A stretch of 32,000 nucleotides of DNA from Candidatus Thorarchaeota archaeon (GCA_003345555.1 PRDJ01000018.1:4429-36428), one strand, 5' to 3'. Counted from the stretch's first letter, positions 402 through 30,988 are shown. A program made the numbers and translations. Notes: a model not told the origin generated them from the sequence alone.

Positions 402-1331
402 ATGCAGTCCATATGTTCGAAGTGCAACCAGCCCGCCGTGTACCTCAGGCAATACACTTCAGAATCCCTCTGCAAATCCTGCTTGGTAAAGACCACTGTG
501 GAACGAGTGAGGCGGAACATAAACAAGAGCCAAATGCTGAAAGAAGACGACCGAATTGTTGTTGGTGTATCCGGGGGCAAGGACAGTGCCACACTTCTAG
601 ATACACTCTTCAGAATTGAAAAGGACTTCCCGCAGGCCGAACTGATTCCTGTGCTAATCGATGAGGGCATAGAAGGTTATAGAGACAAGGGACTCGAAAC
701 CGCCCGCCAATTGACATCATCCTTGGGCCTCGAGCTCGAGATTCGTACGTTCAAGGATCTTTATGGTCACACGCTGGATGACATCATCCGCCTGCGACCT
801 GCGGATTCTAATGGGGCATGCACATACTGCGGTGTGCTCAGGCGGCGTGCTCTGAACACTGCGGCACTGGAGCTCGAAGCTGACGTTGTTGCCACGGGCC
901 ACAACATGGATGACGAGGCTCAGACAATACTGATGAATGTCATAAGGGGTGACAGTCAGAGGATTGTTCGGACAAACAGACCACGCGATCATTCCATCAA
1001 AGGATTCGTGCCGAGGGTAAAGCCCCTCAGTGAGCTGTCGACCAGAGACACAGTTGTTTATGCCTATCATGTTGGACTGCCATACCACGACATTCCTTGT
1101 CCGTACGCCAGCGAAGCACTTCGCAACGACCTGAGATTGTTTCTGAACGAGATGGAGCACAAGCGGCCGGGCACTCTACTTGCCATTCTGCATTCGGGTG
1201 AGACGATGTCAGAAGCAATGGAGCACCAAGAGGGCGTCTCGGACGCCACAGTGTGTGAGAGTTGTGGTGAGCCTGCTTCTTCCAGATTGTGTAAAGTGTG
1301 CGCCATACTTCAGGAAATAGAAGGGTGGTAA
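402..1331 (+). CDS. ncsA: tRNA 2-thiolation protein NcsA/TtuA/Ctu1 family (PP-loop ATPase)
   Basis: SGGKDS PP-loop, CTYC, GHNMDDEAQT, CPY, and N- and C-terminal CxxC Zn fingers. ATG at 402 preferred over track start 369. Confidence 0.9.
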   Translation: MQSICSKCNQPAVYLRQYTSESLCKSCLVKTTVERVRRNINKSQMLKEDDRIVVGVSGGKDSATLLDTLFRIEKDFPQAELIPVLIDEGIEGYRDKGLETARQLTSSLGLELEIRTFKDLYGHTLDDIIRLRPADSNGACTYCGVLRRRALNTAALELEADVVATGHNMDDEAQTILMNVIRGDSQRIVRTNRPRDHSIKGFVPRVKPLSELSTRDTVVYAYHVGLPYHDIPCPYASEALRNDLRLFLNEMEHKRPGTLLAILHSGETMSEAMEHQEGVSDATVCESCGEPASSRLCKVCAILQEIEGW

Positions 1332-24662: not shown

Positions 24663-24700
24663 GATGAAGAGAACTAGTTCTCTTCATCTGCTTCTTTTAC
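24663..24700 (+). terminator. 26-bp perfect palindrome plus pyrimidine run after rpl2
   Basis: GATGAAGAGAACTAGTTCTCTTCATC (24663-24688) is self-complementary and is followed by TGCTTCTTTT. Confidence 0.55.
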
Positions 24701-24777
24701 GCAATATCTACAAAATCGGAGACCAGTATTACACGAGTACATATCTTTCTAGTAGGTTGCGTCTTCGAGGACTAGGA

Positions 24778-24963
24778 ATGCGTCTCATTGCAGTGCATTT
24801 GCCAGAGAAACTGGTGGATGACATACAACGTCTGGTTGACAATGGTCTCTACCCGAACCGGTCGGAAACGATTCGAATAGCCATCAGAGACCTGCTCAAA
24901 AGAGAACTCTGGGTGCATGGCAATGAACTGCGCGAGCAGCCGGGCGAGGCTTCCGTACAATGA
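24778..24963 (+). CDS. cdrS: Ribbon-helix-helix (CopG-like) regulator, CdrS-like
   Basis: MRLIAVHLPEKLVDDIQRLVDNGLYPNRSETIRIAIRDLL is an RHH fold. Its stop overlaps the ftsZ start by 4 nt. ATG at 24778. Confidence 0.8.
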   Translation: MRLIAVHLPEKLVDDIQRLVDNGLYPNRSETIRIAIRDLLKRELWVHGNELREQPGEASVQ

Positions 24964-26231
24964 AGTCACTGGTCGACGATGCAAGGGAACACATCCGTGG
25001 GGAACTGAGCATGTCCACAGGCCGTGATATGGGCCAAGCTAGGATTGTTGTTGTGGGCTGTGGCGGAGCAGGCAACAACACCGTCAAACGGCTCATGACC
25101 ATTGGGGTGCAAGGCGCTGAGTGCATTGCCATAAACACCGACCGACAACACTTGGCTGTCACGACCGCTCATCGCAAGCTGCTGATCGGCGAAAGAATCA
25201 CACGAGGACTTGGCGCTGGCGGTAATCCACATGTGGGTCAAGCTGCGGCTGAGGACTCTATCCAGCAGATTACGGATCTGCTTCGGGACGCAGATTTGGT
25301 TTTCATCACAGCAGGCATGGGCGGGGGCACGGGTACCGGGAGCGCACCCGTTGTCGCTGAGATTGCTAAGAAAAACGATGCCATAGTTGTAGGCGTCGTG
25401 ACAATGCCCTTTGAACTGGAACGAACACGTATTGACAAGGCAAAGGTTGGGCTAGCCCGCCTGCAGGAAAATGCTGACACAGTTGTCGTGATCGACAATC
25501 AGAAACTTATGGAACTCGTACCCGACTTGCCTCTTGAGGAGGCCTTTGGGGTTGCAGATGAGGTACTTGCAGGCATGGTGAAAGGCATCACAGAGACCAT
25601 AACCATGCCCAGCCTAATCAACTTGGACTATGCAGACGTGCGGTCAATAATCTGCAATGGCGGAGTTGCTCTTGTTGGCTTAGGTGAAGCGACTGGTCAG
25701 AATCGCGCCGAGACCGCCATTCAGAATGCACTGAACAGCCCGTTGCTGGAAGTCGACTGGAATGGAGCCACGGGTGCGCTGATTCACATCACAGGGGGCC
25801 CGGATATGTCTCTGGCTGAGGCGAACAATGCTGGAGAGATGATCTCTCGAAAGATGAGTGGAGACGCCAATGTGATTTGGGGCGCTCGTGTTGACCCTCG
25901 GCTGACAGGAATGCTGCGCGTGATGCTGATACTCACTGGTGTCAAGAGTCCGCAGTTGCTTCCTCGTTCTAAAGAGGAAAAGCCGGTTGTCCCCGGCCGA
26001 AGAAAGCTTGTAGACCTAGGCGTACTTCCATCTCAAGCTGGTTCAATAGACCCGCGAAAAATCAAGGACGAGTTCAGGGCGCTCGGAAAGATTCCTGCAT
26101 ACCCGCGCCAAGGTTCATGGGAAGATCGTCTCAAACCAATTGACAGACTGCAGCACGACCACAGGTCGGAACGAGACTCCGCCGAGACAAAGAAGAATCT
26201 AGATGAACTCGGCCTGCGAAGACTCCTGTGA
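24960..26231 (+). CDS. ftsZ: Cell division GTPase FtsZ with long C-terminal tail
   Basis: GCGGAGNN, GLGAGG, tubulin signature TAGMGGGTGTG, T7 loop NLDYADV. Confidence 0.97.
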   Translation: MKSLVDDAREHIRGELSMSTGRDMGQARIVVVGCGGAGNNTVKRLMTIGVQGAECIAINTDRQHLAVTTAHRKLLIGERITRGLGAGGNPHVGQAAAEDSIQQITDLLRDADLVFITAGMGGGTGTGSAPVVAEIAKKNDAIVVGVVTMPFELERTRIDKAKVGLARLQENADTVVVIDNQKLMELVPDLPLEEAFGVADEVLAGMVKGITETITMPSLINLDYADVRSIICNGGVALVGLGEATGQNRAETAIQNALNSPLLEVDWNGATGALIHITGGPDMSLAEANNAGEMISRKMSGDANVIWGARVDPRLTGMLRVMLILTGVKSPQLLPRSKEEKPVVPGRRKLVDLGVLPSQAGSIDPRKIKDEFRALGKIPAYPRQGSWEDRLKPIDRLQHDHRSERDSAETKKNLDELGLRRLL

Positions 26232-26346
26232 ACGGTGTCCATTAGCGCAATACATAGTTCTTTTCAGGTGTCAGAAGCCACATCGTTTCACATTGTCGCG
26301 CCTATGCCCCACTAGAGCTACGAGAATGTCAGTCTCGGACTTACTG

Positions 26347-26802
26347 TCACTCCGTCTTGCTTGTCTTGCTCTCGAGACCGTGCTCTGTCATCCAGTCTTT
26401 GGCTATTGCAGCAACACGTTCGTAGAGTGGACCTGAACCATCCACGCCTTCAGGTGTAATGCGTATCTTGTTCATGACAACAATTACTTGGGTATCTGGA
26501 AAGTAGCGAACTCCTCCCGGTGGGAAGCTCGTCTCAAGCTTCTTAGCAAGTCCCTCCAGACTGATTTCCTTCTCAGCAACAGAAATCGACACAATGCTGC
26601 CGCCGTAAATGAAAACCTTGGGTATCCTTTGCTCCTCGCCCTGGACGGCCACGTCCGATAGGACTATGCTTAGAGTCGTCTGGTCGAATCCTTTCAGAGT
26701 GCCAGAATATGTCTTCCCTGCGGTCGTAGTCACATTAATAGTCGAGCCAACCACTGAGGCGATCTCACGGTTGAAGGCTCTCATTGCTGTGGCATCTGAC
26801 AT
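26347..26802 (-). CDS. Lsm/Sm-like protein with C-terminal domain (SmAP3-type)
   Basis: Sm fold (GKTYSGTLKGFD, KVFIYGGSIVSI) plus an approximately 65-aa C-terminal domain. Confidence 0.85.
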   Translation of the reverse strand: MSDATAMRAFNREIASVVGSTINVTTTAGKTYSGTLKGFDQTTLSIVLSDVAVQGEEQRIPKVFIYGGSIVSISVAEKEISLEGLAKKLETSFPPGGVRYFPDTQVIVVMNKIRITPEGVDGSGPLYERVAAIAKDWMTEHGLESKTSKTE

Positions 26803-26850
26803 CTTTAATCACCATTCAAGAACGTAATACTAGAACGAGCCTTCCCCACT

Positions 26851-27000
26851 CTGTTGTCTTAAAAGTGATGCCGTTGCCCGAAACTTACCCGCCTAGGACA
26901 ACTTCCCAGACCGTGTTCGGTTCCTGCTTCATCGTGGAGCACCTGCCTTTGTGGCATGCCCCTCCCCACTCTTACAGGCGTTTTGAGTCTCCGCCCAACT
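26851..27000 (-). ncRNA. Predicted TnpB omega-RNA (scaffold overlapping tnpB 3' end, guide about 26870-26851)
   Basis: TnpB omega-RNAs are established to derive from the right end plus flank. The boundary after AACGG is inferred and the 5' end is approximate. Confidence 0.55.
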
Positions 27001-28170
27001 GGCGGCGACTGAAGCCAGATTCATGGCCGCATTAAGGTCGCGGTCCGCCTCGAAACCGCAATTCACGCACTTGTACATTCTCTCAGAGAGCGACATTTCA
27101 TCCTTGACGGATCCACAGCTGGAGCATCGTCTCGTGGACGGGAAGAACGAGTCTGCCTCCACGACTGCACCCCCGTTCCACTTGGCCTTGTATTTCAGCT
27201 GCCGGAGAAACTCCCCCAAGCTCGCATCGGCGAGATGCTTTGCCAGATGATGATTCCTAAGGAGTCCGGTCACGTTCAGGCTCTCAACACCGATGACTGA
27301 CTTGGTTCTCGCCAGCATCGTTGTTGCCTTATGGATAGCATCCTTGCGGATGTTGGAAACCTTCAGCTCGTACCGGGCCAGTCGTATCACCGTACGGGCC
27401 CGGTTGTTGCTTCCTCTCGCCTTCCTCGCAAGAGACCTTTGGATTCGCTTCTTCCTACGTTCAAAACGTGAAAGAGGTTTTTGATTCGCAATTACGGTTC
27501 CGTCACTGATTGTGGCCAGTTTCGAAATGCCAACGTCAACTCCGGCCGTGGGTCCAGTGTTGTTCTGGGCCTCAATCTCCTCTTCCACCTGAAGACTCAC
27601 AAACCATTTTCCAGCTTTTTCTGAGACAGTCGCCGACGGAATGTGCACTCCCTGAGTTGGAAGATACTCCTTCTCCTTGAGTCGGATCATACCAATCTTG
27701 GGCAGCTGCACCGAGTCGTGGAAGACCTTGATTGACCCTCTCAGCTTGAAGCTGCCGGCACCGAGTCTTCTGCGCTTGAATCTGGGATGGCCCGCCCGCG
27801 TCTCGAAGAAGTTCTTGTACGCCCTATCGAGGTCTCGGAGGGCTTCTTGCGGGGCGCACTTGGAGACCTCATACATCCATGTGAATTCCGTCCTCTTCAA
27901 AGCAGTCAGTTGCTTGTGGAGCTCAATGGCATTAGACGATCTTCCCGTTTTCTCGTACTCTTCTTTCCGCCGCGCAAGCCCCCAGTTGTATACAAACCGA
28001 GCCGCGCCGCTGTGTTTGAGCAGGACTGTGTGCTGGACATTGTTGGGTTCGATTTCTGTCTTGTAGGCCCGCATGATTTTCATGTCTTCATGACCTCTGT
28101 CGTGTGTTCGGCATGGTCAGATAGTCTTACGCTGCCTGCTCCTACGTGGCGTGAGTCGACATTAAAAGTC
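26871..28170 (-). mobile_element. Non-autonomous tnpB-only element, IS607-like right end (left end not located; 28170 approximate)
   Basis: Solo tnpB. Downstream GAAGCAGGAACCGAAC...GTAAGTTTCGGGCAACGG resembles IS607-type right ends from recall. No tnpA in the 127 nt before the next ORF. Confidence 0.7.
26929..28083 (-). CDS. tnpB: TnpB RNA-guided endonuclease
   Basis: N-terminal HTH (RAYKTEIEPN, ARFVYNWGL), RuvC D (GVDVG), E (GVESLN), D (DRDLNAA), Zn finger CSSC..CVNC. Confidence 0.95.
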   Translation of the reverse strand: MKIMRAYKTEIEPNNVQHTVLLKHSGAARFVYNWGLARRKEEYEKTGRSSNAIELHKQLTALKRTEFTWMYEVSKCAPQEALRDLDRAYKNFFETRAGHPRFKRRRLGAGSFKLRGSIKVFHDSVQLPKIGMIRLKEKEYLPTQGVHIPSATVSEKAGKWFVSLQVEEEIEAQNNTGPTAGVDVGISKLATISDGTVIANQKPLSRFERRKKRIQRSLARKARGSNNRARTVIRLARYELKVSNIRKDAIHKATTMLARTKSVIGVESLNVTGLLRNHHLAKHLADASLGEFLRQLKYKAKWNGGAVVEADSFFPSTRRCSSCGSVKDEMSLSERMYKCVNCGFEADRDLNAAMNLASVAASWAETQNACKSGEGHATKAGAPR

Positions 28171-28321
28171 GCCAGCTTTCTCAGCCCTTTTAGCGGTTGA
28201 CTCCCGTTGATTGAAAGGAGCTTTCGTGAAGCACGCAGACTGGCTCATGAGGTTGCCGCGTAACAATAGGTTATTAGCCGACTACAGGGCCAATCCTTTC
28301 AGCCGAGGTGACGCATGCATC

Positions 28322-29161
28322 TTGACCACTTCTGCAAGGCACTTTTCTCTCCAGTACATCCGTGAGGAAGCACTCCCTACACCTTTCTGCCCTGGGTGCG
28401 GCAACGGTACCATCATGAACGTTTTCTTGAAGGCAGTAAAGGATCTCGGGCATGAGAACCTGAGAGGGTTTGCTTTTGTTTCAGGTATCGGCTGTGCCTC
28501 ATGGACAATATCTCCTCATTTTCTCGCAGATACCCTACACACGACACACGGCCGTGCCCTCGCTTTTGCCACCGGGCTGAAGCTCGCTCGTCCTGAGCTC
28601 AAAGTGGTCGTGATAAGCGGGGACGGCGACTTGGCTGCCATCGGAGGAAATCATCTCATCCATGCTGCACGCCGCAATATCGACATGACCGTGATATGCA
28701 GCAACAACTACAACTATGGAATGACCGGCGGGCAAGTTGGCCCAACCACTTTCACTGGCGACAGAACCACAACAAGCCCATACGGTAACCCCGAGCGACC
28801 TTTCGACCTGGCCCGGCTAGTTGCTGCGGCGGGTGCAAACTATGTTGCCAGATGGACCACAGCTCACCCGATTCAAGCCGTGCGATCCATCAAGAGGGCA
28901 CTCGAACGCAAAGGATTCTCTTTCATCGAGATACTCAGTCAATGTCCAACTTCCTATGGCCGTCGGGTCAAGATGCCAAGTCCGACTGACATGCTCCAGT
29001 GGTTCAAGACACTGCCTATGAAGAGACCCGACACTCCAATTGAGTACACAGTTCCTACAAAGGAAGGAATGGACTTGGGCGAATTCACAGACAGAGAAGA
29101 GATGGGCTATGCTGAAGCCCTGAAGCAAATGGCTGCGCGCATTGGAGGCAGGTCGGAATGA
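28322..29161 (+). CDS. korB: 2-oxoacid:ferredoxin oxidoreductase beta (TPP-binding) subunit
   Basis: FCPGCG, SGIGC, HGRA, SGDGD...NN, YGMTGGQ. TTG at 28322 follows GAGGTGA (track start 28211). Substrate specificity not determinable. Confidence 0.9.
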   Translation: MTTSARHFSLQYIREEALPTPFCPGCGNGTIMNVFLKAVKDLGHENLRGFAFVSGIGCASWTISPHFLADTLHTTHGRALAFATGLKLARPELKVVVISGDGDLAAIGGNHLIHAARRNIDMTVICSNNYNYGMTGGQVGPTTFTGDRTTTSPYGNPERPFDLARLVAAAGANYVARWTTAHPIQAVRSIKRALERKGFSFIEILSQCPTSYGRRVKMPSPTDMLQWFKTLPMKRPDTPIEYTVPTKEGMDLGEFTDREEMGYAEALKQMAARIGGRSE

Positions 29162-29685
29162 GGGTTGAAATACGTATTGCAGGCACCGGTGGAATGGGTG
29201 TCGTTCTTGCAGGTGTGTTGATGGGTCATGCAGCTGTTGTCCACGCTGGTCTTGATGCCATACAGACCCAAAGTTATGGATCGGAGGCACGGGGCACCGA
29301 TGCTAAGAGCGAGGTAATCATAAGCGACCAGCCCATACACTATCCAAAGGTACTGAAGGCTGACTATAGCGTACTGATGTCGCAGAAGGCGTTCGATGCA
29401 CATATTGACGGAGCAAAGAAGGGTAGCACTGTCATTATTGATCCGGACTTGGTGGATTACGGAGAGAACGCCGCGGACTACACCATTGTGCCGGTCAAGG
29501 CAATGAGCATTGCTGACGGTCTCGGCCAGCGCATGGTCTCAAACATGGTGATGTTGGGTGCCCTTGTAAAGATGTCCAGAGTCTTTCCGATTGAAGCCCT
29601 AGAGAAGGCTGTGGGCGATATGTTGCCTGCCAAGGTGCAATCACTTAATCTGCAAGCGGTGCATGCAGGGTCCGATCAGGTCTAG
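29158..29685 (+). CDS. korC: 2-oxoacid:ferredoxin oxidoreductase gamma subunit
   Basis: IAGTGGMGVVLAG, QSYGSEARG, NMVMLGA. Confidence 0.9.
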   Translation: MRVEIRIAGTGGMGVVLAGVLMGHAAVVHAGLDAIQTQSYGSEARGTDAKSEVIISDQPIHYPKVLKADYSVLMSQKAFDAHIDGAKKGSTVIIDPDLVDYGENAADYTIVPVKAMSIADGLGQRMVSNMVMLGALVKMSRVFPIEALEKAVGDMLPAKVQSLNLQAVHAGSDQV

Positions 29686-29960
29686 CCGCCATGCACCAGA
29701 GGAAGTATGACTACACTATCTCCGTTGCCGAGGCGGGTGTCAAGGCCACCGGTCAATTCTATGTCCACTCCGTTCCGAAGCAGTAGTGTGTTCTGATTGA
29801 GCTGTTCAGGGGTGGACCACACTCCCCTGACCTCGTCTCTTGCATCAATCAGTCTCCGCAACAGGTCACGGATACTGACAGTATCCTCAAAATCCAGACT
29901 GGTCTCAGGTGTGCCCATTCTTCCAGCAATTGGTCCCCGGAATCTGACAGTGATTCTCAT
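29682..29960 (-). CDS. Ubiquitin-like beta-grasp protein (MoaD/SAMP/Urm1 type)
   Basis: 92 aa from ATG 29960, LLRNGVDI..GGLDTRLGNGDSVVILP, C-terminal HGG. Confidence 0.88.
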   Translation of the reverse strand: MRITVRFRGPIAGRMGTPETSLDFEDTVSIRDLLRRLIDARDEVRGVWSTPEQLNQNTLLLRNGVDIELTGGLDTRLGNGDSVVILPLVHGG

Positions 29961-30028
29961 GACAATCAGCGTCACATATGGTTGTCTTGAAGATAAAAGA
30001 ATCAACATAGGTGACAGATTTGCGGTTC

Positions 30029-30988
30029 CTAGCCAATCGCCAGTGATTGTCTTAGGACCACGGGGTTCACGTGTCCAGCCTTGAGTGTTCTGCCGCTGGT
30101 TATGTCGTTGACCGTGATTTCGGCAGGGCCGAAGAGCGCTGGATCCAGTCTATGAGAGTCAAATCCAACCGACGCGAGAAGGCGATACAGGGGCTGCCCG
30201 TACTCTGAAGATGCAGATGATGAAGCTCTTTCGACCAATGCTTCCAGCTTATCACTTTCATCTGACTTCACAAAGAAGAAGGCTCTTCCGCCGTAGATAA
30301 CGCAATCATTTGTAATCCCTGCTGCCACTCTGCTATCTCTTGCTGCAAGAGCGATCGGGGCGACTCCGTGGCCTGTTCTGATTCCTGCGGGATTGAATCC
30401 GAGCGTCATGAGCCTATACACACCGGCCTCCACTACCCTTGCGGATGTCAGCACCGAACCGACAATGCTCGTTATGGGCGCCAGAATACAGTAAAGATCG
30501 GTTGTCGAGATGCCACACGTGTCTGCTATTGATTGTGTGACGCTATCGGGAGGTGTCTCCCCTGTTTCCAAGCAGATTATTCCAGCTTTTGAATCATCCC
30601 TGTAATTCAGCTTAACAAAGAGCTCTTTCTCGATACTTGCCAATGCCCTTGCAGGACCCGAGCATACGGCAGAGTAGTCGCCAATCCTCATCTCCCAGCC
30701 AGCATGCTGCGAGCCCAGTGCAGCAAGCATGGGTTGGTCGGTTCCGACGACCACTGAAGGCATAGTCATATCCCCTATGTGCACTCTAGAGACCCTGACT
30801 GCCCCAAGGCCTCCCAAGCAGGCCTCAGCACAGAGCCTGCCAGCTTCGATTCCGCCAGTCGCATCTATTCCTGCATCAATCAAAGTTGTCCCGTTGGCCT
30901 GTTGGACTACGACACATTCAAGCTCATCCTTTCTATCTATGATTTCCCGGACGATTTCCATAGCTTGCTCATTGACGCTCGTTCTCAC
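30029..30988 (-). CDS. mch: Methenyltetrahydromethanopterin cyclohydrolase
   Basis: LIDAGI..GGIEAG, CLGGLG, LGSQHAGW, SGPARALA, ARVVEAG, NDCVIYGG, FGPAEI. Confidence 0.92.
   Translation of the reverse strand: MRTSVNEQAMEIVREIIDRKDELECVVVQQANGTTLIDAGIDATGGIEAGRLCAEACLGGLGAVRVSRVHIGDMTMPSVVVGTDQPMLAALGSQHAGWEMRIGDYSAVCSGPARALASIEKELFVKLNYRDDSKAGIICLETGETPPDSVTQSIADTCGISTTDLYCILAPITSIVGSVLTSARVVEAGVYRLMTLGFNPAGIRTGHGVAPIALAARDSRVAAGITNDCVIYGGRAFFFVKSDESDKLEALVERASSSASSEYGQPLYRLLASVGFDSHRLDPALFGPAEITVNDITSGRTLKAGHVNPVVLRQSLAIG

Follow-up and report, generated by a model that had tools for sequence, protein, structure and literature searches.

The window, a stretch of 32,000 nucleotides from a Candidatus Thorarchaeota archaeon (GCA_003345555.1, PRDJ01000018.1:4429-36428), carries between two divergent genes what is best explained as a non-autonomous IS607-family element: an intact tnpB and its guide RNA, with a predicted homing-type function, whose proximity to lsm would be a by-product of landing. 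We hold this reading as a whole to be about 85% probable. The element adds a member to a known IS607 TnpB family, insertion near the lsm promoter is an ordinary event for elements of this kind, and no long-standing question is opened by it. Its value lies in clean delimitation: both ends, empty sites, a scaffold backed by covariation and an inferred GGG TAM are in hand for one Asgard (Thorarchaeota) IS607 TnpB, and these defined parts make a compact nuclease directly testable. A probable way to avoid self-targeting also emerges, in a right end that reads CGG against a GGG TAM; the suggestions that lsm is regulated, or that Asgard archaea have a special link to Fanzor, are removed. Apart from those two suggestions, the observation and interpretation in the initial annotation stand, and the Asgard host it considered probable is Candidatus Thorarchaeota, of the same genus as another Thorarchaeota MAG (G003). 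The features concerned are these:

26347-26802, minus strand: lsm, for an Sm-like protein (domains LSM and Lsm_C), which follows tnpB on the same strand
26851-26870, minus strand: predicted guide, the first 20 nt of the flank past the right end, placed by inference from ISXfa1 (PMC10711439)
26859-26871, minus strand: lsm core promoter, a TATA box (TTTTAA, 26859-26864) after a conserved BRE-like heptamer
26871-27023, minus strand: guide-RNA (omega or reRNA) scaffold of ~153 nt, overlapping the last ~31 tnpB codons and running to the right end
26871-28184, minus strand: canonical IS607-type element body, 1,314 bp, with left start CTGAG... at 28184 and right terminus ...CAACGG at 26871
26929-28083, minus strand: tnpB coding sequence, stop included, 384 aa, with RuvC residues D183, E267 and D349 and zinc-finger cysteines C320, C323, C339 and C342
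28084-28184, minus strand: non-coding left end, with a TATA-like box (28160-28167) and a GGAGG-like ribosome-binding site, from family alignments
28185-28200, minus strand: 16 extra bases outside the canonical left end, ending in GGG (28185-28187)
28211-29161, plus strand: thiamine-diphosphate (TPP) enzyme gene (TPP_enzyme_C), possibly a 2-oxoacid oxidoreductase beta subunit, divergent from lsm and adjoining it in three empty-site genomes

The tnpB product has the architecture of its class: an HTH/WED-REC part, a split RuvC domain with a D-E-D triad and a CxxC...CxxC zinc finger. Pfam recognizes HTH_OrfB_IS605, OrfB_IS605 and Cas12f1-like_TNB domains in it, and its score with the NCBIfam guided_TnpB model is 303 bits (cut-off 100). 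Residues 5-369 align with ISDra2 TnpB (8H1J/8BF8) at an E-value of 3.6e-61; in the residue-level alignment the RuvC aspartate, glutamate and aspartate and both CxxC pairs have their counterparts at D183, E267, D349, C320/C323 and C339/C342, and D347 is a further aspartate near D349. These sources together uphold the earlier description of an intact TnpB with all three acidic residues and the zinc finger kept. As domain order and catalytic residues are those of ISDra2 TnpB (IS200/IS605; PDB 8H1J, 8BF8, 8EXA) over the full length, the window protein is a predicted RNA-guided, TAM-dependent nuclease, whose mechanism is presumably that of ISDra2 TnpB; its nuclease activity is a prediction by analogy. 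Two very divergent TnpB-like frames lie elsewhere in the same genome (G000 contig C19, 544-951, and contig C53, 3589-3999); these show 28-32% identity over the RuvC/zinc-finger part.

Placement among the insertion-sequence families deserves some care. The element might be read as a tnpB-only member of IS200/IS605 (IS1341 type), moved as single-stranded DNA by a Y1 transposase acting on hairpin ends: NCBIfam gives its top score to IS200_TnpB (335 bits, against 254 for IS607_TnpB, neither reaching its own cut-off), the closest solved structure is that of ISDra2 TnpB, an IS605-family protein, and relatives with 33-43% identity adjoin Y1 transposases. The model ranking was nevertheless dropped as a classifier, since trees, annotated neighbours and end motifs point to IS607. 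In a quick tree of 93 rows all 13 Y1-adjacent TnpBs split off at a branch supported at 95, and the window protein sits with IS607 TnpA-adjacent proteins in a clade supported at 98; in a careful tree of 36 rows the window clade has 97/94 and five of six Y1-adjacent rows split off (99/96), the sixth (L115) lying on a long branch outside the main Y1 group. Among annotated plasmid matches the best, at 44-45% identity, come from Thermus and Rhodothermus, where IS607-family TnpBs adjoin transposases of that family, and in a metagenomic relative (L082, 50% identity) a Resolvase-domain ORF abuts tnpB. Trees, neighbours and this relative agree that the TnpB belongs with serine-recombinase TnpA partners. 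ISDra2 is mobilised by its Y1 transposase with hairpin ends and has a TTGAT TAM; here there is neither a Y1 (HUH) partner nor a subterminal hairpin at the left end, which folded as DNA gave no stable structure (z 0.09), and neither terminal inverted repeats nor a target duplication were found for the element, as is usual at IS607 ends. A Y1 gene was found neither in the window genome nor in the two Asgard genomes with the closest copies. An IS200/IS605 origin is on these grounds scarcely credible, and the IS607-like character first proposed from the right end extends to the phylogeny, one long-branched Y1 row excepted.

The termini say the same. A start in which GGG precedes a TTG(A)CAAACAG-like sequence is found in the Thermus, Rhodothermus and Thorarchaeota copies and in a tnpA-bearing element of a sister Thorarchaeota species (G041); all of these, and ISXfa1, finish in ...AACGG. 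The family end motif is thus GGG, then the boundary and TTGnAAACAG, with AACGG as the last bases of the element; the termini match bona fide IS607 elements, with GG cores. The Thermus thermophilus and Rhodothermus marinus elements (tnpA-Ser plus tnpB), which share the clade supported at 98 in the 93-row tree, start with GGG then TTGACAAC... and have the same right finish as the window family; unlike the window element they have a tnpA of their own, an overlapping gene for a serine recombinase, and are autonomous. ISXfa1 of Xylella fastidiosa stands in a sister clade rather than the same one; its TnpB is 40% identical to the window's over 96% of the length, its right end also reads ...GAACGG, and its guide RNA of ~150 nt overlaps the 3' end of tnpB, as in the window. 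A GGG TAM and a GG crossover have been reported for it (Yoon et al. 2023, PMC10711439). The copy on a Xylella plasmid is without an adjacent tnpA, like the window copy; the differences are that ISXfa1 resides on a bacterial plasmid rather than an Asgard chromosome, and that its activity has been demonstrated whereas that of the window nuclease is predicted from sequence.

The right end can be fixed to the base. Ten family copies (those of the window and contig C74, the Thorarchaeota copy L005, the Hermodarchaeota copy L006 and six more, taken from other genomes or metagenomes) are alike up to ...AACGG and part ways at the next base; in three congeneric genomes (L019-L021) lsm adjoins the TPP-enzyme gene with no element in between, and the lsm-side homology ends at window position 26871. 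Because ten copies and three empty sites agree, the right end is 26871, exactly where the initial annotation had put it, and the flank 26870-26851 is the predicted guide. The left start was set by aligning the seven Thorarchaeota copies of G041, L006 and the bacterial IS607 elements, in which it is preceded by GGG, once by AGG. Left ends of distant relatives (~50% identity) yielded no boundary when aligned; the multiple G041 copies and the L006 empty sites gave one. In L006 the junction is a clean GG/GG one with GGT shared; one Hermodarchaeota genome (L144) shows the empty site, and four more genomes give an identical split match with a 3-nt overlap. Look-alike tnpB-only elements described in other genomes have GGG followed by TTGCAAACAG at the left end and ACAACGG at the right. 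Within the left end, the TATA-like box at 28160-28167 (minus strand) is kept across the family, ~80 nt before the tnpB ATG.

The left junction of the window copy is odd. The empty sites of the three congeners run from GAG directly into CATCAC, that is, into the guide sequence, and the same join or a one-base variant of it recurs in ~5 further family genomes; the window retains GGGAG at 28202-28206. What was inserted therefore comprises the canonical element and 16 bases to its left (28185-28200), with one G, base 28201, common to both junctions. Dinucleotides follow suit: GG at the right junction, a canonical left end after GGG, AG at the host junction 16 nt farther out, and GAG in the congeners' empty sites. 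A search of the genome and the fetched loci found the 16-mer only at this locus and in a near-identical strain (L048). The GGG at its end looks like a TAM carried from a former site; the 16 bases may be a piece of the old left flank that came along when excision took place farther out, and integration at a non-canonical AG would leave AG at the left junction and GG at the right, as expected of one of the two daughters when the core is mismatched. An indel in the relatives would be a less parsimonious account, and the origin of the extra bases is unexplained. Non-matching junction dinucleotides like these have been reported for CboIStron (bioRxiv 10.1101/2023.11.20.567912), from which the window element differs in having neither a group I intron nor tnpA, and in its 16 extra bases.

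The guide-RNA scaffold is a structured RNA that overlaps the 3' end of the gene and stops at the right end ...AACGG. Folded as a consensus, a 160-nt alignment of the ten copies forms six helices with 31 pairs, of which 22 show compensatory changes; 90.5% of the cells are paired, against 39-51% with slid partners, and none of 500 shuffles reaches the observed values. The window copy keeps all the helices (MFE -57.5 kcal/mol, z -2.0), and the extent of the scaffold agrees with that of the solo copy on contig C74; an Rfam search of the region returned no family for it. In ISXfa1 the scaffold ends with the GG (PMC10711439). No targets of the guides were found elsewhere in the genome, in which the predicted guide of the window element is unique; the TTTT within it might stop archaeal transcription early. 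The functional length of such guides is usually 16-20 nt.

Selection on this stretch of tnpB seems to be exercised through the RNA. Between the window (26929-27030) and L005 (4040-4278) a difference of one base shifts the frame of the last ~30 codons, and the two proteins are 384 and 425 aa long. The tail is read in differing frames while its DNA is conserved, and selection on the 3' stretch must consequently act on RNA; as judged from this comparison, it is the RNA that is maintained, and the protein can do without its tail.

A GG core raises a dilemma, pointed out from the sequence at the outset: the occupied junction itself presents GG before the target, so that either the TAM uses additional bases or the complex could bind its own locus. 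The family settles the matter in favor of additional bases. Of 11 family elements, 10 have GGG as left flank, with Thermus, Rhodothermus and the G041 tnpA element counted in; right ends read CGG in all intact full-length copies and in most solo units, four solo units and one full copy being degenerate there. GGG is the inferred TAM of the family on this pattern, and it is the TAM found experimentally for ISXfa1 (PMC10711439), with TGGG for CboIStron (bioRxiv 10.1101/2023.11.20.567912). The base that separates CGG from GGG is likely the discriminator of self from non-self; with GGG on family left flanks and CGG at intact right ends, self-targeting is unlikely, and so is regulation of lsm. Canonical GG-to-GG excision at the window locus would yield a perfect joint of GGG and target. 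The empty sites of the sister species may resist cleavage, because GAG rather than GGG precedes the target.

From characterised IS607 and IS605 TnpBs a working mechanism can be put together. That is, a tnpB-only IS607 element would have landed between the divergent lsm and TPP-enzyme genes in a Thorarchaeota lineage, directly upstream of the lsm BRE/TATA; the left end would supply a TATA-type promoter for tnpB; the transcript would fold in its 3' part into the scaffold of ~150 nt, up to ...AACGG, with the next 16-20 nt of flank as guide; the TnpB-RNA complex would cut DNA that bears the flank directly behind a GGG-type TAM, either the joint left on excision at the GG cores or an allele that lacks the element and has GGG there; the element would then be restored by recombination with an occupied copy. 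The occupied locus would be spared, as its right end offers CGG and not GGG; movement would require a serine-recombinase TnpA in trans; and the location beside the lsm promoter would follow simply from the landing site. The IS607 literature supplies the pieces, namely the GG crossover, a GGG or TGGG TAM, a reRNA of ~150 nt and a role in homing (PMC10711439; bioRxiv 10.1101/2023.11.20.567912). For CboIStron, scarless excision, GG-dependent integration and the TGGG TAM have been described, together with cutting of the donor joint by TnpB, so that the element is retained (Zedaveinyte et al., bioRxiv 10.1101/2023.11.20.567912).

The transposase is the missing part. No tnpA adjoins tnpB at the window locus, and a search of the whole genome, which is 93% complete, for the Y1_Tnp and Resolvase families found neither, in keeping with the initial description of a solo TnpB. 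As a serine-recombinase TnpA (MerR-type HTH plus Resolvase) does not accompany it, the window copy is a non-autonomous derivative, and the transposon life cycle cannot run in the window genome because TnpA was not found there. The genus has or had a trans-acting TnpA, since the sister species G041 (one assembly with G003) encodes a protein with MerR HTH and Resolvase domains. That IS607-type tnpA (208 aa; L178, G041 contig C3, 750-1376) sits behind a canonical left end, GGG followed by TTGACAACAG, and has no tnpB after it; seven tnpB-only copies reside in the same assembly. In the window genome, the search for further copies found only the full element and a remnant. The latter (L002, contig C74 of G000, 1035-1191, minus strand) is a gene-less copy of 157 nt, 85% identical to the scaffold and right end and with its own flank or guide. 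On its 5' side GGGGGG is followed by CTGA, as if a deletion at a TGA microhomology had joined the first four left-end bases to the scaffold; it lies 30 nt past the stop of a same-strand gene and supplies the last codons and the stop of a convergent 354-aa ORF.

Scaffolds also stand alone in Hermodarchaeota genomes (G042, G072-G074, G076, G078, G079; L157-L174): of 20 short matches fetched, 18 are solo scaffold units of ~140-150 nt without an upstream tnpB. In one type a TATAAAAG box stands ~25-30 nt before the scaffold, within a conserved upstream block; in the other the left-end promoter of the element is joined straight to the scaffold. From their sequences, both look like promoter-driven mini-elements that make guide RNA only and would need TnpB in trans. 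PATE-like guide-only elements have been published for IS605.

Is the window copy then dead, a stranded relic that has not yet accumulated mutations? The transposase not found in a 93%-complete genome, the presence of one full copy and one remnant only, and the odd left junction would all suit such a fate, and as to mobility that reading overlaps the one preferred here. It is nonetheless improbable. The dN/dS of 0.17 relative to L005 (78% identical), or 0.135 over residues 1-330, shows the sequence signature of purifying selection and speaks against it as a sign of long-term constraint. A metagenome contig (L048) with the identical insertion, 99.6% identical to window 24932-30083, differs by 19 SNPs in 3.8 kb of flank and two in the non-coding ends of the inserted DNA (28191, 26887), and by none in the 1,155-nt coding sequence, where ~6 would be expected from flank diversity; this uneven spread could reflect purifying selection, or else recent copying of the element between strains. 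A dead element would also not be expected to retain every helix of its scaffold. The non-autonomous element is probably immobile now and still kept intact by selection.

A different fate would be service to the host, in which the element has been co-opted to regulate lsm, the TnpB-guide complex binding the lsm promoter or read-through from tnpB driving or occluding the gene. The setting is suggestive. TTTTAA at 26859-26864 stands 6 nt from the right end, and the initial annotation gave the 20-nt flank (26870-26851) correctly. In most of 24 genomes of the same family the BRE-like heptamer and TTTTAA(G/A)AC are kept 55-60 nt before the lsm ATG while the remaining spacer varies, so that the motif is a real lsm core promoter; the predicted guide does span it, as had been proposed, and the element abuts its upstream edge exactly. 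Only ~125 nt separate tnpB from lsm, which has the same orientation, so that transcription of the guide must cross the lsm promoter. TnpB-derived transcription factors (TldR) are known (bioRxiv 10.1101/2023.11.30.569447). Against this, the guide of any TnpB element is its flank, and the match to the promoter needs no special explanation. The core promoter has been preserved, the terminal G of the element replacing the original G. Three species of the genus lack the insertion, which is thus recent and not part of a conserved arrangement; the occupied junction reads CGG where the family TAM is GGG. Domesticated TnpB regulators reportedly combine an inactivated nuclease with a conserved association with the regulated gene; the window element, with its triad intact and its absence from three congeners, shows neither trait. 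Modulation of lsm by the TnpB complex, raised as a possibility by the initial annotation, is unsupported on the same points (an insertion missing from congeners, a nuclease not inactivated, an intact promoter, a junction without a TAM). A regulatory role is not supported, and co-option is very unlikely.

There is a faint chance that the element is not neutral all the same: sense transcription of tnpB over the lsm BRE/TATA, or weak binding of TnpB at the CGG site, could tune the Sm-like protein, and, the lsm promoter motif being conserved across the family, the guide could serve as a cross-species homing address wherever GGG precedes it. In a family-level relative (G009, L027) the lsm promoter motif is preceded by GGG, beside a 15-nt match to the window guide; with the canonical TAM adjoining the match, this upstream region could serve the element as a homing site in a different species. 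The lsm leader (26840-26852) and the scaffold (26960-26972) share a direct repeat of 13 nt, which is at chance level and was set aside.

A link to the eukaryotic Fanzor nucleases had also been drawn initially. Its generic part stands, in that Fanzor2 and the cyanobacterial 'pro-Fanzor' TnpBs derive from IS607-associated TnpBs (PMC10711439). The specific part does not. Fanzor and pro-Fanzor proteins carry a fingerprint of DPG in RuvC-I and a catalytic glutamate six residues before the first CxxC (PMC10711439); when tested against the window TnpB, the published patterns gave no match, RuvC-I reading DVG and the glutamate standing 53 residues before the zinc finger, in the canonical position. Without DPG and the relocated glutamate, the protein tells nothing specific about a connection between Asgard archaea and eukaryotes.

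One minor observation concerns the neighborhood beyond lsm. An ORF for a CopG-type ribbon-helix-helix protein (24664-24963) ends 4 nt inside the start of ftsZ (24960-26231) on the same strand, an overlap that suggests a coupled pair.
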